DNA of 63,647 nucleotides, filler included, from Chrysochromulina tobinii (Eukaryota), in assembly GCA_001275005.1 (NCBI GenBank). It is 5 parts of 5 records of this genome, joined end to end, with 100 filler letters (N's around TTAATTAATTAA, not from the genome) between each part and the next. Parts side by side here need not be neighbours in the genome. Positions count along the whole stretch, not along the records: positions 1 to 13,764 come from JWZX01001350.1; 4 more parts are not named here. One strand, given 5' to 3'. Shown here piece after piece: positions 1-61,105 of this stretch. Below the pieces are notes generated by a model. The model saw only the letters and a list, made by a program, of their open reading frames with translations, made no database searches and was not told the origin of the DNA. The position numbers were made by a program, and so were the translations under genes. Position 1 is the first letter of the stretch. Every line of letters begins with the position of its first letter.

Positions 1-3000
1 GCGGCAGCGGCAGCGGCAGCGGCGGCAGCGGCAGCGGCAGAAGAGGCGGCAGCGACATTGAAAATGGAATGGGCCAAGCAAGTGCTCGGGGAATCTCGGT
101 ACACAATCTCAGCTGACGTCGAGCCAACGGACGCACAAACCATCGCCCAATATGTCACAGGCTCACAGCGTGGCGCAATGGAAGCCGGCAGAACGTACTT
201 CGACGAGTCAGAGGTGCGGGCAAGAATCAGGGAGAATGGAGGAGACGACAGCAAGTACAGCCTCCACACACTCAGGCAAGCCGTAAAGGACCACGACCGA
301 CTACGTCGCGGAGAGGAATACGCCCACGACCTCCGGTGCGGAGTCACAGCCGGCACAACAACTGATGGAGCCCTACACATGCGGGACGACGAGATCATAT
401 GGCCGCGCGACGATGTGCGATTGCAGCGCCGGGAAGGCGCAAGACAGTCAGGACAATACCGTGAATGGGCAGAAGGGGCGGCCGGTACGATCACCCGCAG
501 TGCAGGAAGAGGAGACTGGACAGTCCAAGTAAATGGCATCGCGGGAAAGTACGAGATCGACGTGTCGAGAGAGGAGGTACACCTAGTCAGAAGACGAAAC
601 TACACAGCGGGTGACGTCGCCGTGTACATAGAGACAGACCAAGAGGGCCTCGAGAAGAACGACGGAACCGCCCGAGCACCAAGCGCAGTCCTGCTCCTAA
701 GACGGACACCTTGCGAAGAGAACAGGCTTGGTGCAGCGAGATGGATAGCATGCAGAGGGAGCGACGCGATGACAGTGATGGTATACGAGGAGAAACTGCA
801 ACGAATGCCGTGGCAACCACAAAATCGACGTCAATCACGACAGGCGCCAACGGACAAAGAAATACTAGTGGCGGCGGCGCAGCGAGCATATGCCATATCA
901 GGTGATTGGGAGGGCGACATAGTCGCAGCAACCAGGAATGCCGCCGGTAGCAAGGGCCTTCAGATCAACGAAGTAGAGGCCAAGGCTGCAATCGGCGAGG
1001 CTCGACGACGTTGGCAAGGGGGCAACGCCTGTGCACGCATGGCCACGCTCAATCATGGCGGGATCATCGTACGCCTACGCGAAACAACGGCGGCGATGCC
1101 GGGACAGCGCAGAATGGCGGAGACGCAGGCGAACGCCGACACCGCCACGCTCTCTTGGGAAGCGGACAACAGGCTCTGGAGAACCATGCGTACGCTAGCC
1201 GAGACAAACGACGTCGTGCTCTTACAGGAAACCCACCTACCTAAACACGACCCGAAGGGGCTGAGCAAGATAGTGCAACAGACGCTCACCAGCGGCGAGT
1301 TCTCGGGCTGGCGCATCGCCGCATCACCCGCCGACGCGGACGATAAATACGCAGGCGTCCTTATGTGGTGGAACTCCGAGACGGTTGAAATGACTGACGT
1401 CAAAGTCTTAACACCCGGAAGACTACAACGAGCACGAGCGCGCATCCTTGCGGATGGGACGGAAATGGTCATAGTAAACGCCTACGTCCCCACGAGATGC
1501 GGCGCCCCGAGCGCACAGCAAGCGGCCGTGCTGGAAAACGTACGGGCACAACTACAACTCGAGGTCGATACCGCGGACGAGGAAGGAGACGAGATCGCAA
1601 TAGGAGGGGACATACAGGCACAGACGACAGACACGCTGGAGGCGCGGAAGGACACAGGCAGCGACAACGCATACAACGCATGGCTCGATGCGTTCTGCGC
1701 GGACAACTGCCTCATGAGTATTGGAGATGAAGAGCCCACTTACAGTGCAGGGGACGGCGGGCCGCAGACGACGATAGACCACTGGATCGTCAGCACAGGG
1801 CTGGCCGACAGAGCGGCCGCCGAAGTGGGAGCTGGCGCAGACGGACTCGCGGGGATTCAAGACGGCACTCATGGGCACAACTCACTCCAGATGAGCCTCG
1901 CCTTGCGCACCGCAGATGCGGAGGGCATCGAGGAAGAATGGGAGCAGCGGGAATCACAGCTACCACCCATGGATGAATGCGAATGGGCCGCGTTCGACGG
2001 GAAGGAAGTGGAGACGGTCGCAGAGGCCGCGGAACGCGCGGACGCGACGCACCAAAAGGCGCACACCGCGGTGGGGGGCGACTCATTAGGCGACTCATTC
2101 GGCCAGGCGGCGCGCAGACTGGTGGCTATCGAAGACGCGCTCAAAAAACTGGTGACCGACATTCAGGAAATTGGCGACCGCGCAGGGCCGTCGACAAGCA
2201 GCAAAATAGTCCGCCTCCACGAGAAAATGCTCCGGTGGCGCAGGTGGCTACGAATATGCGATGGCAAGAGACAATACCCCGATACGCACCGCATGTTCCA
2301 CGACGACGACTGTGCACAAGTGCTCGGCGACGCACCGACGCGCGACGACCTGGTCCGCGCAGCCGTTAGGAACAACGCGCCAGGGGGGCCGAGGCGGATT
2401 GCACTCCGCGAGATCTGTCGCAAGCGACTGCTTCACGCCAGAGAAAAGTACGAGGGAGCAGTAACGAAAGGTGCTGTGGACACTGATCGAATACGCACCC
2501 GCCTACTCGCAGACATCAACAAGGCCGTAGAAGAAGGGCGCGACCCACGCTGGGAATGCTTCAGGGCAGTGGGCCGAGCGAAAGCGGCGTTGGCGGGCAA
2601 GCGCACAGCGCCGCGGCTGGATCAACCGGGCATGCGGGCCATTAAGCGCACGGGCGCCACCAAAGCGGAGACGGGGCAGGGAGCGGTGCTCCGGGCAATC
2701 CATGACGAAAGCGTTGTTATGCACCAGGAAAGGGGAGCCAGCGCGGCAGGCACCCTGATAATGCAAGAACACATGGCGACCGCGGGCCTGCCTGCGCCGT
2801 GGCCACATACGGTACACGAACGACGCGAGGACGCGGAAATCACAGCGGAAGAGGATGCGCGCGCCAAGGTCGCGGCCGACATGAAGGCGGCGTGGGCACA
2901 ATGGCACCACGAGACGACGACGGCAGCGGACAACGGCGGAGACCCATGGGATGCGATCTACAGCGCCGCCTACCAACCAATCGTCGAGAATCTGCGCGTG

Positions 3001-6000
3001 GAGATGAAACTGATCATGTCCGACAACAACATCGACCGAGGCTTACAACGCTTCCGAGCACGACAAGGTGTTGGGGTCGGCGGATTCTCAGGCATCTGGA
3101 TCGCTCGCGCCAGCACCGCCACGAGGACGCAATATGCGCGTACGCTGAGGGAGATAGCGGCGGACGTCCTCATCGCCGCTGATGCACTCGACAAGGCCCG
3201 TAGTCCACAGGAACGACGCGTGGCTGTGGAACTAGTACGCACGGCCGCACCGCGAGGATGGACACAATGGATAATCATGCTCCTCACCAAGCCAGGCAAA
3301 GCCCTTGACGTGCTCAGCAAGCGTCGTGACATCTGCCTCCAGCCTCACTCGCTCAAGCTATGCGCCAACGCCGTGGCGCCACACTACCAAGAGGTGCAGG
3401 AACACACGCAACCCGAGGCCAACACGGGCTTCAGACCGCGCGGCGCTGCAACAACGACGGCACTATGGCTGGGACTGACCAAGGAAGAAGCTGCCTCCGA
3501 GCGCAAGGGCTGGTTCTGTGGATTCATCGACAAGGGCGGTTTCTTTCAATCCTGCGTCCGACGGGCGCAACGGGTAGTGGAAGCACGGTACGGCGTGCCG
3601 GTCTCGGTCACCAACCTCATTATGGCCATTCACGACTCCCTCACGGTGAGGTACGACTCAGGGATGGGACTCACACATGGCACGGAGTCCAATGTGGGCA
3701 ACGGACAAGGAGACACCATCGCATCCATGCGCAGCATGATTCCACTCGCCACTGAGACGCGCGCAGTGGAATGGCTTGTCGCCGGATTCCAGTTCGTGGC
3801 TCCGAAAGGCGTATCCCGAACGCGCACTGTGCAGGGATGGTTTGCAGATGATGGTGCCCTCGTGGTCGACTCCCTTCGCGCCCTACAACAAGCCTTCACC
3901 GTCGGATCGGCGATGGCGCGTGTACTGGGCTTCACAGTCGGGATTGACGCGGACAACAAGGGTGTACCCACTGGCGACAAAACAGGATGGATGGGATGCG
4001 AATGGAGGGATGGCGCATGGACAGAGATGGGGGACGACGTCACCATCAGACTCGTCGATGGCAGGGCTGTGCCGCGCGTCAAGGAGTTTTACAAGCACTT
4101 AGGAATTCGGCAGCCACCCAAAGCGGACTGGACAATCGCGCGGAAGATTGTGACAAACCGCTGCGGCGGCATCGCGAGCGCACTCTCACGCCTGGGAATC
4201 CTATCGGCCGAAGAATATGTGGAAACGGTGGACGCAGCGACCACCACGGTCGTCGCATACTATGGTGCCACGTTCCCGATCGGCAGGCAAGCATGCGAGA
4301 TGATCGATGTTGCAAAACGACGTGGACTCGCGAGACTGGGCCACGCAGGCGAGCGCACGTCGAGATGGCTCGCGCATGCGCCGCGGCCGCGCGGTCTCGG
4401 CATGGCGATGACCTGGCCCCACGCGGCCGCGGCACTCGTAGTGGAGGTGGATCGAGCACTGAACATGCCCGAAACTGCGCCGGCGCACGTGGCCACCGCG
4501 AGCAGAATAGCTAAAGAATTCTGGAGATGGGGATGGCGACCAAACAAAGGTGCGCACGTGCCGCTCGCGTGGAACCCGACATGGATGCGAGAATCGCTCA
4601 CAGAGGAAGGCATTATCGAGGCGTGGCAGTTCTACCTACAGATCGCCGAAGTCCAAACGCGGACGAGCGACAAAGGCAGTGGAGCCGCGGATGCACTGGC
4701 GGACGGGTACCGCATGCCCGCAGATCCGGAGGGAGCGGATGCACCAGTCTGGGAAAGGGAGGGACGCATGTACGGCAGACGGCTGGCCAGACTTGGCGGC
4801 ACACTACGCAAGCACTTCCTTGCCGACAACGGCGGGTGGCGCAGTGAGAAGGAACTCGGTGAATATCTTGGGCGCGGCGGACGCATCGTCGGCGGACATA
4901 GGATCGGAGCGAAGCTGACGACAGCGGAAGCCCGGGAATATCAAACACTGCTACGACAATTCCAACCTGACGAGCACGCGTGGGCAGCCACGCAACACCC
5001 AGGCCCGCGCGAACGCCCAGCAGAAGTACGCGCCGTTGACGTCATATGCGCGGGAAACGGGGCTGCCGACAGCGCGGAGTACCTCATCGAATTTAGCGAC
5101 GGAACGACGAGATGGGGGCGGCGACCGAAAGCTATGGCTCCGGGAGTGATGGACAAGCTGCGCGACGCACGAGAGAACTACCTGGAGGAAGGGGAACGCA
5201 CCATCGAGCAATTTGCTGAGGACCTACTCGAGGGCACGGAAGCATGGTGGCTCGCCACCAGGGCACCGTTGGCAGTCGGAGCACGCGCCCCACAAGACAT
5301 CTCCGCAGAGGCGGCCAGGGAAATCGGAAAAGGATGGTGGCGACCAGGAAAGGCGAGCATGTCCGCACAAGAGCGACTGGGACCCGGGGCCAACATGATC
5401 CAAGGCGCGCGACGTGCAGCAGACGAAGCCAAGGCGGATGCCACCCGGGCGGACGCGGCGATGACGGACGGCACAACAACACCGAGCGAGCAAGCTACCC
5501 TCGCGGAGGCGGCGGAAACGGCTTGGGCGTGGGCGGCTGCCATGGAGGATGTCGCGGCATACCTTGAAGCGCCGCCAGATGAACGGGAAGAACGGAAGCC
5601 GCCGATGGACAGAGCGTACGCCGAATATATTGCAGCCGCAGCACGGGCGGCTACCGGCAATTACGCGGAGGCAGTCGTCGCCTGGGCGCGGGCACTGCCG
5701 GAGCACGGACTCGCGGCCAGAGAAAACGCCGAAGGAGCCAACGCGGCGACGGAAGCGGACGCGAGAGCCCCGGCCAAGCGATTCCGACCCAGCGCGCGGC
5801 CGGAATGCTTCATGGGCACCTTAATGCCCGCAGACGACAACGGCAAGCGGCACATGCGACCGTCTCTCGAGCTCACCGAGGCGCAGCGCAGAGCCGCGGC
5901 AACGCTACCGCCCGACATGCCGGTACCCGACGAGCGCGACATGCGAAGAGACCCAAGAGTAGCTTGGAAGGACGACTGGCACATGTGGAACGACACGCCA

Positions 6001-9000
6001 CGACGTCTCGGATGGAAGCTCTCGGAAGAGCAACTCGAACAGGTGCACAGACAAAGGCTCGCCGCCCTAGAACGCCGGGCGGCGGCCCGCCCAACGCGTC
6101 AGCACAGCGGTACAAGCACGATCGCAGGCGCGCACGCAGCCGAAACAGCAAACACAGAGGGCGCTTCAGGCCAAGCCCACGGCACCAACCGCGCACGCCA
6201 ACAGTTGACAGAAGCAATGGCCGCGGAAGCACGCGCAGACGAGGCGGCGTGTGCACATGAGCCATGGCCGAGTGAATGGGGCGTAGAGGAACTGGAGCGG
6301 GCTGAGCGTGAAGCCGCGGGGGCAATGAGCGATGAGGACGTGGAGATGCGGATTGCCGCGGATCACATGGAGGCTTACGACGAGGCGGAGAGGATGACGC
6401 ACGCGTACCTATGCGATGACACGGAACAAGACGCTGCGCAGCACGAGCTCGGGCACGCGAGGAGCCAAACTGCAACAATGCGACGACACGTGGCAGGGCA
6501 GCACACACTCGCATGTGAACGCAGGCTACAACTCGTGACGAGCGAGTCGCTACGGCACACCGCAGCTCTCACGAAGGCGACGGCAGAGGCGGAACACGAA
6601 TGGCAACGAATGTGCGCTGAAGCTCTTGAAGCGAGACGCATAGCGGACGAACGAGCCAGCCAATGGAACGACGTCAGATTGTCGGTGATGGACATTTATC
6701 GCGACTCCAGCGCCAAGGACACCGAGCGCAACAAGGCAGCGCGGCGCGTCACACAAGCGCGAGACGCGGAGAATGCAACACGAGAGGCGGGTGCTGCACA
6801 AATCAGAGGGGCGGAAAAGCGCCTGCGCCAGACGCGAGCGGAACTGGCGCGGATGAAACGAGCATGCGACGAGGCGGCGCTCGTCACGGACGCGGAACGC
6901 GAGGCCCTCGAGAGCGAGGAACGGGAGGAAGAACAAGAGCGCGAGGCCTCCCGACTGCGAGCAGTCGAGCATGCAACCCGACAGGAGGCGGCGAGAGCAA
7001 CGCGCCTACGGGAGATGGCGGCAGCGGAAAAACTGCAGATAGCGCGAGAGGCAACCACAGAAGCACTGCGCACGCTCGACGGGTCCGATGAACGCGCGAG
7101 ACGGAAGGCACGAGCGACGGCGGAGCACGCAGCGGAGGAGGAGAAATATGCGCACGTGGAGTATTGGGATGCTCTCACGACTGAACAACGCGCCGCCATC
7201 CTCGCCAGCCCAACGCTGCGACTATGCGCGCGACATAGGGACATGGAGCAGAGCACGGCGGCGCGAGCGACGGACCGCCACTACGGCGGAGTCGATATCA
7301 GCATGGAGCCCAAGGAGCGCCGGAACATCGACACGACGGAAACCAAACATGCCGCCGCCGTCGGGCTTGCCATCGAACAACGGTACGGCATTCAGTTTGC
7401 GTACGCAGTGGACGGCAGCAAAGATGACGTGGAAGCGTGGGGCGACGGCGCAACGGGCGAACGAGCAGCGGCATGGGGCGCCTGGGACGGCACCACCGCG
7501 TACGGGGGCGCGCTACCGCCGGGCACGGGCAATCAGGAAGCGGAGCTATTCGCAGTAGAGAGGATCCTCGCGCGGCACACGCGAGGCGATCGGGTGCTCA
7601 TCATGTGCGACTGCCAGGCGGCGCTCGCGATGGCCGAAAGCACGTGGCAAAGCGGACGAATAGGGACGGGCAGCCCTGCAGACGGGAGAACAGGCGGGCT
7701 GCTGATTGAGGCAATCACAAGACACCGGCTCCGGATCACGAGCAGGATCGACGACAGCAAGCCAAGGGGATGCGTATGCTTCGTGTGGATCAAAGCACAC
7801 GGCGGCGGCGTCGCGCCAAACGCGTACGCAGACGCGATCGCAAAATCATACCTAACGGCCGACGTGGACTACGCCACGGTAGACGCGCCATACCTGGCAC
7901 TGCCAAGGGTGTGCCTATACGTAGCTCAACCAACGCCGCATGAAGGCACGTGGGAGGTTGGAAGCCAGCAGTACACCTGCATCGCGGCAGACCGATCACT
8001 AAGAAGCCTCATCGTCGACGGCATGACACGCCAAATTCTAGCGCACCTGCCGAGACAGTCGCACGGGCACTGCGACGCGCGGGTGGCCACGGAGGTGACA
8101 CACACGCAAGGACGACCGGCGGGCGCGACACCGGGTGCGATGCCCAGACACGGCGTCACGGAGCCGACAACGACCGGCAGCGCCCTACGGCTGCGATCGA
8201 ACGACCTCCGACAGCAAGGGATGATTTGCCCGCTTTGCCACGCACAGGGTCCGCTCGAGGGCGACCACATCTTGCAATGTGAGGGCATACCGAAGGCGAA
8301 ACGAGATGAGGCGGTGGCAAAGATGACCTCGGCGCTAGAAGCGGCTGCGAACGCACTGCCCTCGGGGCAGCGCGACGCACCCGCCGACAACACGAGGAAG
8401 GCATGGACGGAAGCCGCGCGCCGCGCAGGACAACACGGAGCGGCCGCCGCCCTCGGACCGGCTCCGACCGAAATCGGGACACGCACGCCAGCTCACGCCC
8501 GCGAGTGGGCGAGGTCAGGGTGGAAGACCAAGGACGATGTGTATGAACTCAGTATGCGCGAAGACGCAGCGAACATCGACAAGAGGCTTGCAGCGTGGTG
8601 CGCCGTGGCGATATGCAGCGCGCACGCAGCCGCCGTCAGCGCAGCAAGCGCAGGTGACGCCACCGACGAGGTAGCCCAGGCATGCGACGAGGCCGTGCGG
8701 AAACTTCAGGACGGCCCCTTGGGATCAGCGAGCCGAGCAGCGGGCGACGCGACCGTGGATGGGGTAACAGGCACGCCATACATCCCACAGCGAGGTGCGG
8801 ACGAAGGCCACATCAGCGCGATCCGAATGCGCTTCTCACAGCTCCAGCGCCACACCCAACTCGCACACGTGCACGAGTGGACAGGCCGACGAGCATGGCT
8901 GCCGTCTGAACGCAGGAAATCCGAGACGGCGACGTGGACGGCACACACCCACCGCGGATTCCGTGAGGGCGGAGGGGCCGCAGGGCGAAAGGAGGCACAC

Positions 9001-11188
9001 GCTGTTGCCGTGGATGCCCACGAGACGGTATACTCTATCGCGGCGACGGCAAGATGGCCGTGGCTGGTGGAGTACGAACTCGACGCCTTCGACGCGACAC
9101 GGACGGACGGGACGAAAGGACAACGAACGTCGGTCACCGTTCAGCTCGGGTACTCGGATGGCGAAATGACAGCACGAGTCCGCGCGAGACACGTACAAGC
9201 AGATGGGCAGCGGTACAGGAGCGACGACACAGCTATCAGCGCAGAGATGGAGCTCATAGGCGACCACGAGGGGCGTGGATTACGCGCATTGTTTTGGGAC
9301 ATCGCAATGGGGACTCACGACGCGACCCATGGCGCTCAGGCGACTGTACGGAGAGCGACAGCTGCCGCCACCACAAGGTGCCAAGGGGATCCGAGCGGGG
9401 AAGGCTGGAACACTCTGCGGCGCACATTAGGCGGAGAGATACCACCCCCAACCCCGTACGAGAGATCCGAGACACAAAGCCTGCAACGGGTAGCGTGCGA
9501 AGCCGCCGCGGCGGCGGCCGAAGCACGCACCAGGGCCATGCACGAAGAGGCCACAAGAGACGGCAACACCGTGACGGCGGCGCGAGCGAGCGAATCTGCC
9601 GAACAACTCCGCGCGGCCGCCGAACTCCTCGGCGTCAACATCGACGCCACGGCACAGCTGATACGGCAAGCGTTCCTGCGAGAAGCACTCAACACGCACC
9701 CGGACAGAGGAGGCACTGACGCGGCCTTCACGTCGCTGCAAGATGCACACCAGAGCCTCACACGCATCACCGACGAATCACGCCAGCGCGCTGCCAAGGA
9801 AATACGCGACGCTCGGGAGGCAGCGTCAAAGGCCCGGCGCCACTCGGCGGAAGCGGCCGAACACACATCTGCACTCCGTCTAAAAGATGAGATCGCGAGG
9901 GCGAAAGCGGCAGCGGAGCGCGAGGCAAAGGCGGCGTGGACTCCAGTGAGTCGAACTGTTGCGCTCCATCTCCAAGCGGCCAATCAGGGGTACATGAACT
10001 TATGGATGCAGTACCAACGAAAAGTGACGCGGGAACTGAACACGCAAGCGCAGGGCGTGCAGGGAGCCACCTACACAACGCACGCCGAGCGCGTCGCCGC
10101 AGAGACGGTGCAACGCAAAGCAACGCAACGCCACGCGAGGGAGCTTGCGAGACAGACGGCGGTAGCGGACATGCGAAGCGCGGAGCTACGCGCAGCCAGC
10201 GCTCGCAGAATAGAAGCGGTGGCGACGGCCGACCAGTTGAGACGTCGCGGCGCGGAGGCGCTGACTAAAGCCGCGCTCGACGACGGCGATGCTATCACAC
10301 AAGGGTACCGCGCAAAGGTACCGTGGGCAATGTGGGGCAAGCGACACGCCGACAGCGACCAATATGTGTACTACGACATCACGGAGTTCGACACGACATG
10401 GGTCACGCTGGTACGAACCGCCGCAAGCGACGCGGAAAGAAGGACGCCGATCGCGACCGCGGGATGGAATCGCTTCCAACTCAACTGGGAGGAATTTACC
10501 GGCGTCAAGCGATACGGAACGGCACAGCGCGGCGTTGAGATCGTGCCCAAAGGGGCGACAGGCATGTCCTCGGAGGAGGACGAGGAAATAGACGAAGAGG
10601 AACGCCAACACGAACGACACGAAGAGCGACGAGCGATGAAACGCGCGGCCGAGATTGCCCGCGCCGCCAACCGCGACGCCGCGCGAGTGCTACGGGAGGA
10701 GGAACGACAGCGACTGCCGCACACGGCAGCGGATGACGCCCTACGCCAGGAAGAGGGCAAGGGCGCGGCAGCGGCAGAGGGCACGGACGACAGCGACGCC
10801 GACCGTCGAGAGGAAGCCCTCGGCGCCGAGCAGGACAGGACGGGGCCCCCCACCTGGGGACCGAGGGCGCCAAACGCACGCCGACGAGGAGCGTGGAGCG
10901 GCAAGAACTGGGCCAGGGAGGCATGGACGGGGCCGATCGCGGCGATGGAATACGCGGAGGCGTGGCGGGAGGGTCCCCTCCCACGGCCGCCAAAGTCGGC
11001 GGCGGCACACTCGGCACAACGGGCGGCGCAGCGGCGATCCCACAGTGCCAACGCCGAAGGCCACGCACACGCGACGGCGACCGCAGCACGAGAGACAGCA
11101 CGGAGGACGAGCAGTCTGTGGGGCGCCGCGGCCGACGCAAAGGAGGCCAAGGTACGACAAGGCGCCACAGAAGAGCTGAAGGACAGCT
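1..11188 (+). CDS. Retrotransposon polyprotein, main part up to the left inversion breakpoint
   Basis: APE ~1039-1900 (TLNHGG, LLQETH, NAYVP, GGDIQ, TIDHWIVS, GHNSL). RT ~3050-4300 (LTKPGK, RRDICL, NTGFRP, FIDKGGFF, GNGQGD, WFADDG at 3838, YKHLGI). RNase H ~7396-7850 (VDGS, EAEL, CDCQ, WIKAH, NAYAD). CPLC-x9-H-x3-C 8227-8280. J-domain ~9613-9762 with HPD at 9697-9705. Confidence 0.9.
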
Positions 11189-11899
11189 CGTATCGAGCTG
11201 CGATCTCTTGGACGTTGGCATGTGTGAGTTCGTTTCGTATCAACTCCGCATATGCTGTGCACGCTGCTTCCCTCTCATGGTCGTCACTTGGGTCGATGGG
11301 GAACGGGTTGCCGAGAGGCGTCCCGCGGTCCACTCTCCTGTCCTCTGTGTTCTCGGGTCGCCATGGCGCCGTCCGGCCGTTTGCTTGCAAGTTGCCAACG
11401 TGGATGGTGGTGTGGGGCAGGGGTTGTGGTACGCGTTCCCGAGCCGCTGATCCATCTGTCGACGGCGGCTCGTTCACGTCCTCCGTCCTTCCGCGCACTT
11501 GTTGCGCCGCCATGGGCGCATCACGCATTGGCTCGTCTCTCGCTGTGATCGGTATGCATGGTAGGCATTCGAGCACGGTGGTCATCAGCCGCTCAACTTC
11601 TTCGAGCTCGTGGTTCCTGAATGTTGAGGATGCCGATTCCCCCCGGATGAGCTGGAGCACTTGCCTCGCCCTCTCCTCATCGTTGCCGCCCGTGAGCCCT
11701 TGGAGGGCCCCTGTCGCGGTCATCATCTGTGCCGTATCCACTAAGGCCCGCTTGCGGGCCGCCGCCGCGACCTTGTCTGTTGCGGGTCTTTTTCTCTGGA
11801 GCGCGTCCGCCGCCTCAGAGGCGACGCGTGCTGCATCTTGTGCATAGGTTAAATGTATCCCTTGCAGTGGTAGTTCTATCGCTTCCCTTGTTTGCCAGC
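11186..11899 (-). CDS. Inverted internal segment of the same polyprotein, ending in the N-terminal half of a DUF4326-like domain
   Basis: Minus-strand frame reads WQTREAIELP...TIHVGN...RVDRGTPLGNPF...EREAACTAYAELI...NVQEIAARYE. Base-composition skew flips over this interval. Confidence 0.8.
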
Positions 11900-12493
11900 G
11901 CCGCACCATTCGCGTCGACCAACGGCACGCGCTACCAACGGCAACACAGGCGCTGCGTCACGCACTCCACCGACTCGAACAAGACGTAATGGAACTGCAA
12001 CCTGGACGATCAATCCGCCTCATGTGCCACTGCACCCCCAAACAGTGCCACGCCCATGTCATCGCTCACGAAATTCGATACCGGCTCCGAACACGCGGCA
12101 TCAACATTGAAGTAGACGACGGAGGCTGGGAAAGGCCAGAGGAGCGCGGGGACGCAGGCTCAAACGCGGGCAAAGAAGATGAGGGCGCGGACGCAAGCAT
12201 GGATGAAGAAGCCAGCCGCGCCACGGCGCAACGAGCCGACCCAAGGGCACCGAGCCACGCCCCCGCAGACATGATGAACGCCTCACCGACGCTCGCCGAG
12301 TGCTGGATCGACGAAAACAAGGAGCGCAACGAAAGAGCTTACGAGGAATTCATGATACAGATGGCGACGGAGGCAGCAGCGACGGCGGTCGAGGCGACAA
12401 CGGCGACGGCGTTATCGGCGAAGGCGGTGACGGAAGAGGCGAGTCGGAGAAAAAGTACGACGGCGACGAGGAGGAAGAGGGCGGCGGTGGCGA

Positions 12494-12525
<32 letters not shown>

Positions 12526-13254
12526 AGAGCGACGGCGGCTACAGAAACGGGGATGGCGACAACGGAGGCGGCGACGAGGGCATCGGTAACGGCGGCAGCG
12601 GCGGCAACGGCGACGGGAGATGCGGTGACGGGGGCGGCGGCGACGGCGGCAGTGGCGACGGCAACGGGGGAGGCGACGGCAAAGGCGGTGACGGCGGAAG
12701 CGGCGATGACGGCAGCGGCGGAAGGGGGGGACATCGATAGAAGGGATACGGACAACAGCGGCGTGACAGCGAGAGATGCAAGCGAAAAGAACATGGAGAC
12801 GGCAGCGGCGGGGGCGACGACGGCGACGGCGGCAGCGACGACGACGGGAATAGCGACGACGGAGGCGACAACGGGGGCAGCGGCGACGGCGACGACGGCG
12901 GCGATGGCACCGGGGGCGGCGGAAACGGGAGCGGGGGTGACGGCGGAGAGGGCATTGGTGACGGGGGAAGCGACGGCGGTGGCGGTCGGAGGGGGCATCG
13001 AGAGGAAGGAAACGGACAACAGCGGCGTGACAAAGGGAGATGCAAGCTCAGCAAACATGGAGACGGCGGACTCAGAAAGGAACGAAAGCGACGAAGATAA
13101 GACGAGAGACGAAGAAGACGGCAGGGCAGACGGCACCGGGCGAAAAAAGCGCAACCGAGGCAGGCGACTGAACAGTGGACAACGGCAAGTGAGGGCAGAT
13201 CGACGGTCGGCGACAGACGAGGCGCGCGGGAGCCGAGCGGGACAGAGCGAGTGA
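11899..13254 (+). CDS. C-terminal part of the polyprotein: DUF4326-like C-half, Ala/Thr-rich low-complexity tail and basic C-terminus
   Basis: Open from the right breakpoint: RRTIRVDQRH...IRLMCHCTPKQCHAHVIAHEI. Stop TGA at 13252-13254. Confidence 0.8.
12724..13067 (+). repeat. Internal ~80-bp coding duplication in the element tail
   Basis: GGDIDRRDTDNSGVTARDASEKNMETA (~12724-12803) vs GGIERKETDNSGVTKGDASSANMETA (~12991-13067). Confidence 0.8.
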
Positions 13255-13258
13255 GGAA

Positions 13259-13473
13259 GCACCAGATTCTGTGTCGGTAACGACCACGGGAAGGGCTTGC
13301 TCACTCGCGACGGGGCACCACAGCGATCGCGACGCGGCACACAAACACAACAGACGGCCGACGACCGGCGGCGAGCGAAGCGAGCGCAAACCGGACTGCA
13401 CGGCACAGGGGATACGGCACCAGTTTCTGTGTCGGCAACGACTACGGGAAGGGCCTGATCCCCCTGCGACGGG
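13259..13473 (+). repeat. Imperfect ~55-bp direct repeat in the element 3' UTR
   Basis: gcaccagattctgtgtcggtaacgaccacgggaagggc at 13259 and gcaccagtttctgtgtcggcaacgactacgggaagggc at 13417. Confidence 0.85.
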
Positions 13474-13764
13474 CAGCTCGACGAACGTGACGCGGAATCG
13501 ACCGACCACGAATACCCCGCGCTACCCACACATCAAAAATGTTCGCAGGTTTTTCCCACTCCGTATATCCAGACATTTAAAGGCGGGGCGTTTACGGGCC
13601 GTGCCTAGCAATAGGTTCCCGGAGCCAAAATTTAACCGGGTAACCGGGATGCGCATGTGAGATACGGCGTACATATCACCTACGAACTACGCCTCCCGAT
13701 TCCTCCCGAGACCGTCGTGCGTAGCGCTTGCGATCAGTAGTGGTTCGTGCCTCGAGCGACGCTC

Positions 13765-13864
13765 NNNNNNNNNNNNNNNNNNNNNNNNNNNNNNNNNNNN
13801 NNNNNNNNTTAATTAATTAANNNNNNNNNNNNNNNNNNNNNNNNNNNNNNNNNNNNNNNNNNNN
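13765..13864. other. Artificial contig-joining spacer
   Basis: N44-TTAATTAATTAA-N44, with stops in all six frames. Identical at four places. Confidence 0.98.
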
Positions 13865-27741: not shown

Positions 27742-27841
27742 NNNNNNNNNNNNNNNNNNNNNNNNNNNNNNNNNNNNNNNNNNNNTTAATTAATTAANNN
27801 NNNNNNNNNNNNNNNNNNNNNNNNNNNNNNNNNNNNNNNNN
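27742..27841. other. Artificial contig-joining spacer
   Basis: N44-TTAATTAATTAA-N44. Confidence 0.98.
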
Positions 27842-30752
27842 GGTAGATGGCTTCTTCGTCTTCTTCTTCGATTTTAGCTTGGAGGAGTTTGAGGAGCATG
27901 AGGTTTTCGGCGATGAAGGAGTGTTGAACAAAGCCTGTTTGCTGGGGTGATACGAACTGGAGTACTGCTAGGTTCATGCGTTGTGTGAGTATACGAGTGA
28001 AGATTTTATAATCGCAGTTTAGTAGAGATATCGGTCTATAGTTACGGGGGTCGTCTTTGACACCTTTTTTGTAGAGTACCGAGATAAGTCCTTCAAGGCA
28101 GGTGTCGTGGAGTTCGTTGTTTGCGATGCTCTCCTCGTATACTTTGTGTAAGATGAGAGCGATGGTCTCGGAGAATGTTTTGTAGAATCGGCAGGGGAGT
28201 CTGTCGGGTCCTGGTGACTTGCCGGTGGGGAGGGCGCTGATGGCGTCGGCGATCTCTTTCGCGAGTATGGGGGCGTCGCAGAGGTCTGCGGTAGGCTTGA
28301 GGACGCGGCGGGTGTTGCCGTCTGGGTCTGGGCCGCTGAGGGTGTGGAGGCAGGCTTGGGTGGCATGTGAAAGAGGGTCGGTGTTTTTATCTGCGAAGAG
28401 GCTCGTGTAGTATTTGGTAAATTCTTTTAGGATTTGCGACGTTGAGCTAACTGTGTTACCCGTGTGAGTTGGGTTGGAGAGGTCCGTCCAGTCGGTTTCT
28501 TGCATCTTGTGTGGTGCTTGGTTGGGTCGCGCTGGGTTCCATTGGCGGAAGAACTCGCTGGAGCCGATGTCGTGTTTTTTGCCGTTGTTGTAGGCTTCTC
28601 CTTCGAGGGTGTCGTGCAGGGTGACGGCTTTTCGTCGTGCGGTCTTGATCTCTTTTTCAAGGCGGTCGGCTTCGGCTTCGTTGATCTGTTCGCCGTTGGT
28701 GGTGCGGGTGCGTAGGTTGGCGAGGATGAGCTTCTTGAGGGTGAGTTGCTGGTCGAGTTTGAAGCGGGCGCGCTTTGTTTCTGCGAGGCATTGGGTTCGG
28801 GCGTCGAGTTTGATTGATTCCCAGGTGGAGCGCCAGTTTGTATTTGGCGTTCGCATGGCGTTGTTGTACTTGGTGCGGATGGATGCGTGGAGTTGTGAGG
28901 TGAAGGGTTGGTCATCGAAGATGCTCTCGTTGATGAAGGGTAGATCGTTGCCTCGTTTGTGCGTCGTCTGCGTGCTGCATACGTGTACTGCGTCGTGGTC
29001 TCTGGTGGCTCGGGCGTCAGGGTGTGGGAAGAAGTCGGTGCAGTTCGAGTGGACGTAGGACTCATCTGAGGTGTCGGGGACGTAGATTCGGTCGATGCGC
29101 GTGTGCGTGATGCCCGCAGCGTGCGAGTGGTGCGAGGTGAAGAAAGGGTTGGTGCCGTCTGAGCCGAGTTGTTGGCGTGCGACGTCTGTGAGACCATTGT
29201 CGTCTGTGAGGTTGTTGAGGGTCTTGTATCCGTCGTTCTCGTAGGGTGTGGTGCACGCGGTTGGGCGTAGGGTGTCGAGTGTCGTGTCTGGTACGCAGTT
29301 CGCGTCGAGTCCGAGGATGGTTTTGGGATTGACCATCGCAGCGAGGGCGGAGAAAAAAGTGGTGCGCGCGGGGGTGGCTGATTGCTTCCAGTAATTATTC
29401 TTCACTTTGATAAAGTCTGTCCAGTTTAGTTTACCGAGTTGCATGCTGGTGATTTGGGCGGGTGTGAAGGAGGCTTTTGTTGTGCCGGGTGGGCGTTGGC
29501 TGAGTGTGGCGGTGAGCTGTGCTGTGTTGGTTTTGAGCTCGCGTCCCTCTTTGGGTCTGTTGGTGCCGACTTTGGTCCACTCGGTGCCGAGGAGTTCGGT
29601 GCTAGGTTCGGCTGGTGCGTACGCGCAGGTGAGTGTTCTCGGGTGGCCTAGGACGTGCATTTTCGTCGAGATCGCTCTGCCTGCGAGGTGCGCGGGACGG
29701 AAGGTTGATTTTTGGATTCTGAGGATCGCGTCGTCGAGGGATTCGCCTGGTTTTTTCTCGATCGAGGTGTGGGGGATGATGATGGCGGTGCCCCCCCAGG
29801 AGGTTGCTTGGAATTGTTTCGGGGTGGCGTATGCGAGGAGGATGAGGAGCTGGTGTCCGCGGGCGATTTTTTCGTGCGCTTTTTTATCCTGTTGTTTGAG
29901 GTTGTGTTCTTGGATGAAAAGGGCGGTGATGGGCTGGCGTTCGTGTTCGGACGCGATGGCTTTGCAGCATTGGAAGAGTTTCCCTGCTCCTTGCAGTCCG
30001 TTGACGTTCTTGGTGACGTACCGGGGGCCCGGGTTTGGTTCGATGCCTTCTTCGGTGAGGTCTCGGATCCATGTGAGTGAGGGGTTGATGAGTCCGGAGA
30101 GGAGTGTGGTGAGCTCTTTGGAACGGTTTCTTTTGTGTTTGGGTTTATTAGTTGATGTGGCGGTGGTATGACCTATGATGCGTGGGTGTCTATGGGTGTG
30201 AATATGTCGGGTGCCGTGTGCTTTTTCTCTTTGTGTGTCTGCGTTCACACGTGCTCGGTATGGGTGGGGTGACGGGGTGGTGGTGGTGGCTTTGGTTGGG
30301 TTCGTACGTGGTGCGTTGTCTGGCGTTGGGTCGGCGAGTGCGCTTCGGCTGTCCATTGGTTCGGGAGCGGACTCGTGGTAAACTGGTTCCGGTGCATTGT
30401 TTTGTGTGTGTGAATTGTGTTTGGGTTTGTGTTTTTTTGTGCTGCATGCATGCATTTTGTGTGGTGGGTAATTCGTGGTTTGTGACTCTTTTTGGGGGTT
30501 GCTTCTTTTTGGGTGCTTGTTATTTGAGGGACTGATGGGGTGTGACTTTATGTTAACTTGGTACGCTGTACACGGGGTATGGTACCGAAGGTATGGTTTA
30601 TCATGTACTGTGGTACTTGACACATTTGGGCGCTGTGCGGGCGCTTGGGTGCGCTTTCTCTCTGTATGCTTGCGGATGCGCGTTGCTGCCGAGTGCGTGT
30701 GCACGTGAGCTCGTGTGTGGTGCGTGCGCTGGGCTGTTGCGGGAGTTATCAT
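27842..30752 (-). CDS. LINE ORF2: basic leader, 2A-like peptide, APE endonuclease, RT (partial)
   Basis: DLTEEGIEPNPGP, TKNVNGL, FIQEH, CAYAP, GLDANC, RIDRIYV, RDH, GKSPGPDRLP, LYKKG..DDPRNYRPISLLNCDYKIFT, QQTGFV. Confidence 0.92.
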
Positions 30753-31648
30753 GTTGCTTTCTCGATGGGGTCCTTCTCGGTTGCGGCGGGGGTGGGCTCC
30801 TTGGCCTCTTCCTCCTTGGCGCGTTTCGCTAGCATCGACTTGAAGGTGTCGATTGCGTTTGAGGACGCGGGCGCGCGCTTGGGCGCTGGTTTCTTGCGGC
30901 ACTCGGTGTGCATGGCCGTGTTGATGTAGGTGGTCATGCGCAGGTGCGAGACGGTGGTGTCCTCGTCCGTCTGGTGGTCGAGGTACATGGGCTTGTTGAC
31001 GACGGCTGGGTGGTCTTCGGGGAGGGGGCAGAAGCACTGGGTGCACAGGTTGAGTTTGTGCGTGAGCGTGTGGGAGAGCCCGGTCTTCCAGTGCGCTCCC
31101 TTGATTACTACGTGCTTGAGTTCCTCGAGGGTGCTCTTCACGGTCGGGTTGTCGCGGGCGAAATTCTCCTTGAGGTGGATGGCGACGTAGTATTCGCCGG
31201 TGAGGTTCTTGACGTCGGTGTTCTTGCTCAGGTTCGGCTTGAGTTCGGCGATCTTGAGGCCGTTCTTGGTGAGGATGTCCTCGAGGACCATCTTGAGGAT
31301 TGGTGTTGGGGTGCTCGGTGCGCTCTCGGGCTGCGTCAGGCTCATCCAGTAGCGGACGGGTTCTTGGGTCCATGGCAGGTATTGGATGGTCCGCGATGCG
31401 GGGATCGTGCAGGTGAAGGGCTTGGGGTCCGTGATGGCGGTGAGGATATTGACGACGGCCTGCGGGAACCATGCGATGTAGAGTTTTCTCTGCGGGTTGA
31501 CCTTGATGATGATTGTCTCCGGGTTGAGCTCGCCCTTGGTGAATTTCATGAGCTGGATTGCGATCTCCACCAGGATTTGGATCTGGACGTCTCCGACGTG
31601 CGGTACGATTTTGATGTGCAGCGGTACCTTCTCTGCCGTGTCCGCCAT
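30749..31648 (-). CDS. LINE ORF1 (putative nucleic-acid-binding protein with a Cys/His motif)
   Basis: 299-aa ORF directly upstream of ORF2. Strong codon periodicity. CTQCFCPLPEDH motif. Its TGA overlaps the ORF2 ATG. Confidence 0.75.
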   Translation of the reverse strand: MADTAEKVPLHIKIVPHVGDVQIQILVEIAIQLMKFTKGELNPETIIIKVNPQRKLYIAWFPQAVVNILTAITDPKPFTCTIPASRTIQYLPWTQEPVRYWMSLTQPESAPSTPTPILKMVLEDILTKNGLKIAELKPNLSKNTDVKNLTGEYYVAIHLKENFARDNPTVKSTLEELKHVVIKGAHWKTGLSHTLTHKLNLCTQCFCPLPEDHPAVVNKPMYLDHQTDEDTTVSHLRMTTYINTAMHTECRKKPAPKRAPASSNAIDTFKSMLAKRAKEEEAKEPTPAATEKDPIEKAT

Positions 31649-32121
31649 GAGTAGGTCGAGGTCCGGTCTGCGGCACGGGGGTGGTGGTTTGGTAGTGAGT
31701 TTGTAGGTTGCAAGCCCTATTATACTCAGGGCGAGTCTCTGTTTGGGCGGTTTGATTGCGGGGCATGCTGATGAGGCTGGGCAGCGTGCAGATGAGGGTC
31801 AGGGTGATTGCCAGGCGTGTCCAGGGTGCGGGGTTTATGTGCTGGTTTGTCTGTCTGGGCAGGCATGTTGGCGCGCGGCAGTCGGAAAGTGCTGGGGAAG
31901 CGTTGTGCATGCGCGTCTTTCGGGCAGGATGTTCATGGGAGGGAGGCGGTGTGCGCGTGCTCATGGCGGCGTACGTTACGGGTGACACGGGTTCGATCTC
32001 AGAGGCCACTGGGGCGAGAGAGAGAGGTTCCGTGCTCCCCATCTTTTAGAAAAAAGAGGGGATAAAGTTTCTGCGTATACGCACCCCCGACCGCGTAAAC
32101 GCAGGAAACGACAAACCGTAA

Positions 32122-42458: not shown

Positions 42459-42558
42459 NNNNNNNNNNNNNNNNNNNNNNNNNNNNNNNNNNNNNNNNNN
42501 NNTTAATTAATTAANNNNNNNNNNNNNNNNNNNNNNNNNNNNNNNNNNNNNNNNNNNN
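42459..42558. other. Artificial contig-joining spacer
   Basis: N44-TTAATTAATTAA-N44. Confidence 0.98.
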
Positions 42559-52709: not shown

Positions 52710-54431
52710 TCACGGCTCGCTGCGCATGGCTGCGTCGTCCGCAGCTAGAGGCTCGGTGGCGGGCTCGGTGGCGGGCTCGGTGGCCATCATATCAGCTATC
52801 TCCTCCTTGAGCTTCTCCTTGGGGCCAAACACAGCCGCCGCCGCATCCTCGATGCTGCCATTCGGCGCGGACACCTTCGAGAGCAACGATACATCCTTCC
52901 TCGCCATGAGACGCAGTGCTTTCCACTGGAACGCCTTGTCGTTCTTCAGCTTATACTCCTCCTCAATGCCTGCTTCGGGGTCCATTTGCTCGTGAACGGG
53001 CTTGAGATACGTCTCGAGTGAGGGCATGTAGTCCTTCTGGCCGATCGCCTCGAGCGAGTTCCCGCCCATATTCCACAGCCGCGTGAGCGACGCATTCCCA
53101 AGTTGCATGCGCTTGCCAGCACCCACGCCGCCCGTCGAGCGCCGTTTGCGCGAGCCCTCGACTTCAGAACGCGACAAGGAGGCCGCCTCCTTGTCGAAAG
53201 CCGCACACCCTGCCGCTTTCCACTTGGTCCAGTGCTCCTCTCGCTCCAGCATCGTGAGCACAGCCGCGGCAAACTTGGCGCCCCCGGGCGGGATCGCCTT
53301 GAGCAATGCCACGCACTGGCTATGCAGCGCCTCGACGGTTTGTCTCTGGGCGGCGTTGAGGCTCTTGGCAGCGCCTGACGAATTCTTGCGCTCCGTCGAG
53401 ACGGCCTGCAAGAAGATGAGCAGCTGCACCAGAACGTGCCGCCGAAAGTAGCCGTCGCGCAGCTGCAGGGTCATGAGCTTCGACGACGTGAGGAATTTGG
53501 CAAAGTAGACCTCGGCTGTGTCGCCCGCATGCGCCTCATTCACAACGGCCAAGGTTTCGTTAATGACCGCCTCGCCGTTGGGCTGCGGAGCGTCTGCACC
53601 AGCCGGCAGCGCGCTCGACACCTCGCCGGCGCCCGAGAAGGAGCCGAACACCTGGAGCACCGTATTCAGCTGCACGACCAGGGGCTCCCACGCCTCCGGC
53701 TGCACGTGCGCCATCGGGTTCGTGAACGCCTGCTGCAGACCCCAAAACGTCGAATAGAAGCCGTAGTCAATGGCCTCGCCCCTCTCGGGATGGGAGCCGG
53801 CGGTGCCGTCGAGGACAGCCGCATCCTCCGCGGGCGGGACGGGTTCGAGCGACACGGACGAGGTGGCGACCGTGCCCTTGAGGTTCACGCCCGAGCGTTC
53901 GGCAAGGGGAAACGTGTACGCCATGAACATGAGGACACGCCCGCGAAAGTTGGTGTTCTTCGACTTGGAGAGGCGGCGGAGCAGCTCGTTGCACGTGCGC
54001 AAGATGGTGAGCTTGCCCTTGGCATGCTTCTGGTCGGCGGAGAGAAGCTGCGCGAGCGCCGCCGCCCGAGCTTCCACTAGAGCAAACGCAGCCTCAGCCG
54101 CGGAGACGACGTTGGCGTCGAACAGGTCTTCGAGCAAGGCGAACGGAGTGTTCGGGTCAGATACCTCCGCATGTGCGAGGGCAATGGCCACGTCGAGCAG
54201 GCGCGGCACGCCGACCGCTTCAATAGAATGGCCCCTCAACTTGGATCGCTTGAGGAGCGTGTCAAGCTGAGTCCGCAGCGCAAGTTCAAGCACAGTGCGA
54301 TCGCGATCGCCGAGGGGGCGGGCTTCCCCTCCGCGCTCTGACTCGAGCGTGCGCTGGACAGCGCTTACGCTTTCGTCGATCTCTTCCGAGCTCTCTTCGG
54401 TGATGCGGCTGAGTAGAGCGACGAGAGCCAT
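52710..54431 (-). CDS. THOC1: THO complex subunit 1 (THOC1/Hpr1)
   Basis: LRTCNELLRRLSK..NTNFRGRVLMF...FPLAERSGVNLKG, FAKFLTSSKLM.LQL.D..FRR, EREEHWTKWK..GC, FQWKALRLMA. Confidence 0.92.
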   Translation of the reverse strand: MALVALLSRITEESSEEIDESVSAVQRTLESERGGEARPLGDRDRTVLELALRTQLDTLLKRSKLRGHSIEAVGVPRLLDVAIALAHAEVSDPNTPFALLEDLFDANVVSAAEAAFALVEARAAALAQLLSADQKHAKGKLTILRTCNELLRRLSKSKNTNFRGRVLMFMAYTFPLAERSGVNLKGTVATSSVSLEPVPPAEDAAVLDGTAGSHPERGEAIDYGFYSTFWGLQQAFTNPMAHVQPEAWEPLVVQLNTVLQVFGSFSGAGEVSSALPAGADAPQPNGEAVINETLAVVNEAHAGDTAEVYFAKFLTSSKLMTLQLRDGYFRRHVLVQLLIFLQAVSTERKNSSGAAKSLNAAQRQTVEALHSQCVALLKAIPPGGAKFAAAVLTMLEREEHWTKWKAAGCAAFDKEAASLSRSEVEGSRKRRSTGGVGAGKRMQLGNASLTRLWNMGGNSLEAIGQKDYMPSLETYLKPVHEQMDPEAGIEEEYKLKNDKAFQWKALRLMARKDVSLLSKVSAPNGSIEDAAAAVFGPKEKLKEEIADMMATEPATEPATEPLAADDAAMRSEP

Positions 54432-60174: not shown

Positions 60175-60839
60175 GGGCCCTTGCGGAGTGACGCAACGTG
60201 ACGGTGGCTGCGCCGGTAATGGCGACGGCGGGCCTGGCCTTGTTGACGGAGCTGATGGACTCTGATCGCCGCGTCTGATTGCGACCATGTGTATGTATGT
60301 GTTGCTCTGCCGATGCCGCGAGGTTGAGTCGCCATGGGCCACAGGGGAGGGCGCCGTGGTGAGCACTTGCATGCGCGCGGAGGAGGGTGAGTCAGCATGG
60401 GCCACAGGGCCACAGGAGTCGACCTGGATGCGTCGTGAACGTGCGCGCCTCCGTTGTGTGTGTGCGCGACTGCATGTGTCGGCCAGGCCATGCGCAAGGG
60501 GTAAACGCGTGCTGCTGCGCGAGCTGGGGTCAGGCGGGAGCGTGAGCGTGTGCGTGAGGGTACTTTGGTCCTGCGCGATGACGAACCCTGCATGGCTTTG
60601 GGGTCGGGACTGCGTGTGGACGGCTCCCTACATTGAGAGCGCAGGCGGGGTGAGCAGATCCACTGAAGCAGCAAGGTGTGAGCTGGGCAGCGTGTGTGCA
60701 GGAACGGGGGGCGAATAGTTCGGCGCGCTGTGTGGCGTGCGGGGCGCGGCTACATGCGAAGCTGCGTGTGATGACGGGTATGCGTACGTGGGGGCTAAGG
60801 CGTTTCCCACGGGCGGGACCCGTGAGTGGTCCCGTGAGT

Positions 60840-61005
60840 AAGATGGTGAGCTTGCCCTTGGCATGCTTCTGGTCGGCGGAGAGAAGCTGCGCGAGCGCCG
60901 CCGCCCGAGCTTCCACAAGAGCAAACGCAGCCTCAGCCGCGGAGACGACGTTGGCGTCGAACAGGTCTTCGAGCAAGGCGAACGGAGTGTTCGGGTCAGA
61001 TACCT
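60840..61005 (-). pseudogene. THOC1: Partial duplicate of THOC1 (copy of 54001-54166), running into the contig end
   Basis: 166 bp identical except one substitution (ccactag vs ccacaag). Homology stops abruptly at 60840. Confidence 0.8.
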
Positions 61006-61105
61006 NNNNNNNNNNNNNNNNNNNNNNNNNNNNNNNNNNNNNNNNNNNNTTAATTAATTAANNNNNNNNNNNNNNNNNNNNNNNNNNNNNNNNNNNNNNN
61101 NNNNN
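61006..61105. other. Artificial contig-joining spacer
   Basis: N44-TTAATTAATTAA-N44. Confidence 0.98.

Follow-up and report, generated by a model that had tools for sequence, protein, structure and literature searches.

Copies of a giant long interspersed nuclear element (LINE) family that includes an element of the alga Chrysochromulina tobinii are altered in blocks of counted size: blunt inversions and deletions, detected in 14 of 20 related loci, measure three, four or five times approximately 182 bp, and they arise after insertion, since a single locus, recognised by its flanks, exists in differing versions. As a pattern this block-wise mutagenesis is well supported. We presume, with a probability of roughly 0.55, that a host nuclease complex makes paired cuts in the nucleosome linkers of silenced copies, usually with four nucleosomes between them, and that end joining follows. 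The analysed stretch of DNA, hereafter the window (63,647 nucleotides; assembly GCA_001275005.1), consists of five pieces, not necessarily neighbours, which are joined by four identical 100-nt linkers (44 N, a stop in all frames, 44 N). Nearly the whole piece 1-13764 is taken up by one copy of the giant LINE. One scan yielded the 20 related loci (L001-L020); P-numbers denote related proteins and X-numbers sequencing runs with Logan contigs.

The window copy is a 5'-truncated, broken copy of a LINE with one giant open reading frame (ORF) (Table 1). Its frame +1 is intronless and open from base 1, as stated in the preliminary description of this DNA. The single ORF of more than 4300 aa claimed there is interrupted in this copy, leaving 3,948 aa up to a TAG and, resumed in the same frame, 468 aa up to a TGA. 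The frame stops at 11845 because a block of 727 bp (11184-11910) is inverted. This inversion follows from the DUF4326 domain, which is split across the strands (profile positions 9-60 on the minus and 52-81 on the plus strand), and from the A-over-T skew, which is reversed over approximately 11190-11890. The 5,049-aa relative P0001 aligns with 355-11184 on the plus strand, then with the block on the minus strand and then with the plus strand again. Scored against P0001, these breakpoints ranked at the top of 326 stop-free breakpoint pairs, and re-inverting the block in silico restored 4,417 codons without a stop, collinear with P0001. Neither a motif nor inverted repeats of at least 7 nt were found at the two breakpoints. 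An alternative genetic code or stop read-through at 11845 was ruled out, since the stop is situated in the antisense block. One contig of the RNA run X13 stops matching exactly at 11910 and continues for 62 more letters, as might be expected of an uninverted copy.

Two assemblies of the window locus are three inversions apart and show zero substitutions in 13.3 kb; the versions L001 and L006 have the same two flanks and, apart from their three inversions, are 100% identical in all blocks to position 13332. A Logan contig of run X10 repeats the three inversions of L006. For a further block (3260-3984) both orientations are presumably present in run X1, judging from the contig breaks, although this case is less firmly measured. 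Reverse-transcription errors by twin priming or template switching, of the kind that yields 5'-inverted L1 copies, are largely refuted by the comparison of L001 with L006 and appear extremely improbable as an explanation. In favour of it, the copies are 5'-truncated LINEs, and the identity of L015 to L011 drops from 99% to 90% at one deletion, as a template switch would produce, but inversions of the L1 type are single, located at the 5' end and fixed at insertion, whereas the blocks observed here lie inside the element, have a fixed size, can number as many as 10 in one copy and are nested, and they differ between versions of one insertion.

In comparison with L003, 734 bp are deleted in L002, L007 carries inversions of approximately 899, 728 and 738 bp, and L016 carries an inversion of 722 bp and deletions of 726, 729 and 554 bp; L002 and L007 are versions that differ by inversions and a deletion. 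Relative to L009, four assemblies (L017-L020) have in common deletions of 923 and 729 bp, an inversion of 734 bp and three nested patterns, which according to our decoding resolve into seven successive steps of 714-732 and 552 bp. An inversion of 726 bp and a less firmly measured deletion of about 712 bp were detected in L015, and the proteins P0016 and P0019 record another inversion of 722 bp. Events of approximately 545, 741, 745, 930-950 and 1,509 bp in L010, L013 and L014 were read against more distant references and were excluded from the size statistics. At the protein level, a test that is insensitive, antisense read-through was seen in just 2 of 174 giant-family proteins.

Some loci showed further peculiarities. 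In two assemblies L009 is free of inversions and deletions, whereas ten events are present in L017, its sister at 98-99% identity. The position L003 1372 is cut at the same place (within about 1 nt) in L007 and in the approximately 80% identical L013. In L015 (about 7722, corresponding to L011 7014-7726) identity falls from 99.4% to 90% exactly at the deletion of about 712 bp, as it would after recombination between subfamilies at the cut.

A library or assembly artefact is very unlikely. The exact events do stem from short-read assemblies of one sample set, but junctions identical to the base were found again in different samples and in Logan contigs as well as deposited assemblies, and reciprocal blunt junction pairs without repeats offer an assembler nothing to flip on. 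Furthermore, the nested patterns resolve into successive steps of the same size, and host pieces from the same runs are unaffected. Chimerism of the window contig, which the preliminary description had considered, was not seen: a contig of X1 corresponds to 3985-12453 without a difference, and L001 corresponds to 1-12900 at 100%.

Among the 19 directly read events (12 inversions and 7 deletions), 16 measure 712-738 bp (mean 727.4, standard deviation 6.2) and the others 554, 899 and 923 bp. Over 25 events, including those decoded from the nested patterns of L017-L020, the best period is 182 bp. In the inversions the total length is kept, with no bases gained or lost, and of the 14 events that can be mapped exactly, 10 show no overlap at the junction (the average being 0.36 nt, where chance predicts 0.69-0.78 nt). 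No shared motif was seen by eye at 41 cuts. The gaps between cuts of separate events are free of any ruler acting inside an event; the 16 gaps are 0, 14, 177-201, 362-390, 723, 913-952 and 1066-1102 bp. Their fit to a lattice of about 182 bp was matched by 0 of 50,000 jitter shuffles, and that of the 12 gaps between different lineages by 1 of 50,000. When the subfamilies are placed on one common coordinate, their cuts show a weak agreement in phase (p 0.02), judged from 72 pairs that involve the 45 of 53 cuts located where the alignment is good.

We propose positioned nucleosomes, because they would give a lattice of 182 bp. A nuclease would make paired blunt cuts in the linkers of giant LINE copies, mostly four nucleosomes apart, and end joining would flip, drop or invisibly restore the block between them; the ratio of 12 inversions to 7 deletions fits blunt breaks and end joining with loss, flip or restoration. 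Because of the sharp mode at four units, one complex spanning a tetranucleosome may set this distance. Serine and tyrosine recombinases, DDE transposases, Top2 and Spo11 should leave matched spacers, duplications or filled overhangs, and they seem disfavoured because the junctions are blunt, motif-free and length-neutral. Three further elements of the proposal are each inferred: that 182 bp corresponds to the nucleosome repeat of the alga, that the cutter is encoded by the host, and that it is aimed at transposons. Methylation in Emiliania huxleyi reportedly has a period of about 182 bp. It has been described in that species as periodic and confined to the linkers (PMC9246332). Targeting is likely because three events without a substitution in 13 kb would hardly be bearable genome-wide and because the host pieces showed none; in the host contig (27842-42458) neither a strand flip nor a skip of 730 bp was detected in any of four runs.

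Several observations weigh against this proposal. CpG, GC and AT showed no 182-bp periodicity over 58 kb of host and 64 kb of element sequence, nor was any 182-bp dinucleotide signal seen around the cuts, so that the link to nucleosomes derives from the sizes and the phasing. All exactly mapped events come from one mixed-culture sample set, the assemblies of which may share reads (11 runs are flagged as possible sources). The host control is weak, comprising about 7.7 kb of long pieces per run and genes under selection; according to our arithmetic, about 2 events would be expected in the X10 host pieces at the rate of the element, with a chance of about 0.15 of seeing none. Six of the 20 loci (L003, L004, L005, L009, L011 and L012) show no event, and intact copies coexist with heavily hit ones. 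A second LINE family gave an ambiguous picture: 89 member comparisons (about 40,800 aa) revealed no gap of at least 30 aa, nine heads or tails were unexplained, and no opposite-strand match was found among 131 proteins.

An untargeted process would not require a dedicated defence: linkers would be cut by a nuclease or topoisomerase-like enzyme wherever silent chromatin is regularly packed, or throughout the genome, and the resulting changes would survive where selection is absent. Lattice phasing and the lack of a motif suit any linker cutter, and the small host control is compatible with it. We nevertheless regard this as unlikely, since three events per 13 kb without a substitution would, if genome-wide, presumably hit most genes, and since the sizes peak sharply at four units and lack one-unit and two-unit events, unlike a nuclease ladder. 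A precedent is SPO11 in the mouse germ line, where paired breaks are rejoined to yield deletions and reinserted or inverted fragments, observed at hotspots in Atm or Mre11 mutants (PMC13532658). The SPO11 products described there are mostly short, show a 10-bp periodicity from about 30 bp and have microhomology at inverted insertions (PMC13532658), whereas the events reported here have a quantum of about 182 bp and a mode of 727 bp, are blunt with an overlap at or below chance, and occur in wild or cultured strains inside a LINE; no 10-bp periodicity was found among the 21 four-unit sizes.

The polyprotein of the element itself, bound to chromatin via a Tudor/PWWP-like barrel, might alternatively cut or recombine its own family as a side product of integration. 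One possible target duplication of 5.2 kb would suggest widely spaced cuts, and Dualen duplications have a reported median of 900 bp (PMC9977147). All events seen lie within the giant LINE family, and the protein holds conserved domains without an assigned function. This origin seems improbable: the nicks made by APE enzymes are single-stranded, the eight aligned C-terminal halves contain no conserved motif of a second nuclease, and such a rate of self-destruction would presumably be selected against.

The modules listed in the preliminary description, namely APE, reverse transcriptase (RT), RNase H with all acidic residues and the His, CCHC knuckle, J domain with HPD, DUF4326 and the Ala/Thr tail, were all confirmed. 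The RT is very divergent: Pfam RVT_1 by itself gave an E value of 0.2, and a single-sequence search of the PDB with APE-RT gave 0 hits, whereas a profile of 20 sequences matched L1 ORF2p and R2 equally (E about 1e-19). D2471, E2515, D2537, H2600 and D2611 of the RNase H are kept in all eight aligned sequences. The predicted barrel ahead of the APE resembles PWWP (Z 8.5, root mean square deviation 1.9, 55 aligned residues) and Tudor domains (Z 7.2-7.8), and is, with modest confidence, a possible chromatin reader. The model of the C-terminal stretch 7900-11181, which takes in the beta-rich domain, has a mean pLDDT of 62. Fold searches with this stretch gave no match at E 0.001, the match lists being filled by J-domain and helical matches; the best ESM Atlas score of 0.81 is at most a lead. 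A conserved PD-(D/E)xK restriction-like endonuclease motif after the CCHC was not found when the eight aligned C-terminal halves were read by eye, nor was there a Pfam hit.

From LINE biology, the element would move by target-primed reverse transcription, in which the APE would nick the target, the RT would prime on the 3' hairpin and tail, and the RNase H would clear the RNA. The J domain may recruit Hsp70, and the barrel may read chromatin. DUF4326 has been proposed to be a rhodanese-phosphatase processing terminal phosphates on ADP-ribose (PMC9503650); in the element it might remove terminal phosphates from nucleic-acid ends or ADP-ribose.

Table 1. Features of the giant LINE copy, its altered blocks and the linkers, in window coordinates
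Feature	Position	Strand	Remarks
Giant LINE copy, 5'-truncated	1..13648	+	about 300 nt more of the element upstream of the window in L001
Main frame, 3,948 aa	1..11847	+	TAG at 11845; residues beyond 3728 are antisense read-through of the inverted block
Tudor/PWWP-like barrel (predicted)	595..813	+	ahead of APE; structure model, pLDDT about 50-65
APE endonuclease	1045..1880	+	Pfam Exo_endo_phos E 1.6e-5; fold match to ExoIII and L1 endonuclease, Z about 21
725-bp block	3073..3797		inverted in L006 and run X10, not in the window
Non-LTR reverse transcriptase	3241..4290 (limits approximate)	+	FADD at 3841; motifs at 3523, 3697 and 3838
725-bp block	3260..3984		X1 contigs break at both sides without overlap
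RNase H, D-E-D-H-D complete	7405..7850	+	E 9.5e-6
CCHC zinc knuckle	8227..8280	+	kept in 8/8 aligned sequences
Conserved beta-rich domain	8770..9360	+	no conserved acidic nuclease motif seen
724-726-bp block	9361..10086		inverted in L006 and run X10
J domain with HPD	9622..9765	+	E 6.5e-6
735-bp block	10449..11183		inverted in L006 and run X10; right cut in common with the window's own inversion
727-bp blunt inversion	11184..11910	-	present in the window, L001, L006 and runs X1 and X10
DUF4326, N-terminal half	11351 to 11187	-	inside the inverted block
C-terminal part of original frame, 468 aa	11911..13254 (frame 11848-13254)	+	TGA at 13252; DUF4326 C-half and Ala/Thr tail
DUF4326, C-half, CHCxPxxCH	11968-12066	+	
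Ala/Thr tail	about 12363-12990	+	
3' untranslated region	13255..13648	+	conserved hairpin 13603-13616 and (GTAACCGG)n tail 13633-13648
Linkers	13765-13864, 27742-27841, 42459-42558, 61006-61105		identical in all four places

The family consists of dispersed, 5'-truncated copies of an APE-type LINE with a fixed 3' end and without long terminal repeats (LTRs), none of which were found in the window copy. The search for copies and termini revealed eight different 3' flanks and six different 5' truncation points or junctions, while L011 and L015 run off their contigs. The conserved hairpin and a (GTAACCGG)2-3 tail end 12 of the 20 loci in addition to the window copy, in which the preliminary description had placed the end at 13480; coding ends at 13254 and the element at about 13648. 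The 5' end of the window copy is outside the window; L001 reaches 432 nt further and shows a truncation within a low-complexity linker. The hairpin loop varies among copies (GCAA, GAAA or GAGA) and the stem is invariant, so that covariation is uninformative (a two-sided change in 1 of 17 pairs); an Rfam search of the 3' end gave 0 hits. The 3' untranslated region of the window copy contains two diverged copies of an 80-nt unit (13259-13495), and tandem 78-95-nt repeats varying in copy number occur in those of L002 (15826-16109), L005 (15330-15830) and L016 (7165-7530). The Ala/Thr repeat is 75 bases longer in L001 (13233-13332) than in the window (12801-12900) and L006, either as a real or as an assembly difference.

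No short target-site duplication was found among the copies. The 3' flank of L019 (8442-8568) is identical with L009 1964-2090 on the same strand, 5.2 kb upstream of the 5' junction of L009, and in X1 the flank has a depth of 236 compared with about 110 for the element. This match possibly represents a multi-kilobase target duplication or an empty site or allele. Short pieces of the element at 97-100% identity were detected in the RNA runs X12 and X13, which shows neither transcription nor a full-length RNA.

The frame of the family is larger than the more than 4300 aa described initially: L011 is open for 6,612 aa, and L015, 99% identical there, extends 236 aa further. The co-occurrence of J and DUF4326 with homologous RTs held, both following the CCHC in the same order in P0001, P0007 and L011; P0004 had no J hit. 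In the distant P0107 (27% RT identity) DUF4326 is located between APE and RT. DUF4326 lies ahead of the RT in P0107 and P0039, and P0126 (3,481 aa) contains a GNAT acetyltransferase. Judging from these distant relatives, cargo appears to be shuffled across the clade. The N-terminal cargo comprises Gly-rich linkers and modules that the subfamilies have in common (57-63% identity); L011/L015 contain ankyrin repeats, and L008 contains a U-box. Stretches in L008/L010 that we take, by eye, to be AP2-like and OTU-protease-like had no Pfam support. ARM-repeat coding sequence occurs in frame with a 5'-truncated copy (L009 4529-7140; P0001 1-870). In P0001/L005/L009 these repeats probably stem from a host gene that was joined in frame to the element where its 5' end is truncated.

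A HMMER search over 1.84 billion representatives yielded 253 relatives of the RT region; of ten distant ones looked up, none was informatively named, and no relatives were found in viral contigs and prokaryote genomes. In a quick, preliminary RT tree of 25 unnamed rows, the family falls in one clade of 9 (SH-aLRT 100).

The preliminary description had proposed a giant single-ORF LINE lineage with accessory modules and had compared its layout with that of LINEs such as I/ingi/R1-type elements. Lineage and modules are supported, but size alone is not new, since the cryptophyte Dualen-1_GCr has 5,287 aa with SET, C48 peptidase, APE, RT, RNase H, CCHC and a restriction-like endonuclease (PMC5029228). 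Giant single-ORF APE-RT-RNH-CCHC LINEs of this type are closer than I/ingi/R1. The family resembles the Dualen/RandI LINEs (PMC5029228, PMC4640811, PMC9977147) in its algal host and in one very long ORF with N-terminal accessory modules followed by APE, RT, RNase H and CCHC, and the long target duplications of Dualen-4b_cRei (PMC9977147) are possibly matched by the one 5.2-kb case. In contrast, Dualens are defined by APE plus a restriction-like endonuclease, of which no conserved motif was found in eight aligned sequences of the giant family; it additionally carries the beta-rich domain, J, coiled coils and DUF4326 after the CCHC, a longer frame of at least 6,612 aa, and a tail of (GTAACCGG)n. 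We therefore describe it as apparently Dualen-like in build and do not call it a Dualen.

Other parts of the window carry a second, unrelated LINE (27842-32045, minus strand), which is cut by a linker and shows no strand flip in 4.2 kb. A frame of 349 aa (31798 to 30752) lies upstream in it, and its APE contains an insertion, about 75 aa long, that is missing in most relatives; a sequence at about 30050, just before the APE, we take to be a 2A-like peptide. A THOC1 gene is located at 52713-54431, its closest named relative being that of Emiliania huxleyi (52%). A 98% identical duplicate of its residues 90-146 lies 6 kb from the full gene (60833-61003, minus strand), and the GCAATCAGAG repeat of the same piece also flanks L012. 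Taken together, the THOC1 match and this repeat make a haptophyte host likely.

Two known processes invite comparison. Repeat-induced point mutation (RIP) is a heritable, fast mutagenesis that piles up in transposon copies, kills ORFs, changes single bases and is targeted to repeats. The events in the giant LINE are likewise heritable and fast, accumulate in transposon copies and destroy ORFs, but fixed-size blocks are inverted or deleted without substitution, and targeting, established for RIP, is presumed here. The programmed elimination of transposons in ciliates by PiggyMac-type transposases also removes transposon DNA in chromatin by host-made paired breaks, the host origin being presumed for the giant LINE; it is somatic and bounded by TA, whereas the changes reported here are inherited and have no boundary motif, and to our knowledge it does not flip blocks of fixed size. 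RIP and methylation induced premeiotically (MIP) of fungi are both named in PMC9998398.

As a tentative extension, for which we see slightly less than even chances, the process could be the structural equivalent of RIP. A nuclease guided by chromatin and equipped with a four-nucleosome ruler would make paired blunt breaks that flip or remove about 727 bp per round, shredding active giant LINEs within short culture times; the LINEs would form a lineage next to Dualen without the second endonuclease, and their J, DUF4326, U-box, ankyrin and protease-like cargo would partly serve as counter-measures.

In the literature covered, which included few subscription papers and no Repbase, no report of the giant family or of fixed-size, lattice-phased inversions in transposons was found. 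The giant LINE itself is apparently not a new kind, being Dualen-sized, seemingly without a second endonuclease, and having frames of at least 6,600 aa with shuffled cargo. The heritable mutagenesis that acts on it in blunt blocks, probably counted in nucleosomes, appears to be new in kind. The process appears active in cultured strains and is thus testable at once, and block events would bias the annotation and dating of transposons in these algae. Host direction would make it a novel class of genome defence in eukaryotes; without such direction it would still be a mutational process that has gone unreported. In both cases an enzyme measuring a constant distance along chromatin is implied, and the events would be a sequence record of nucleosome positions.

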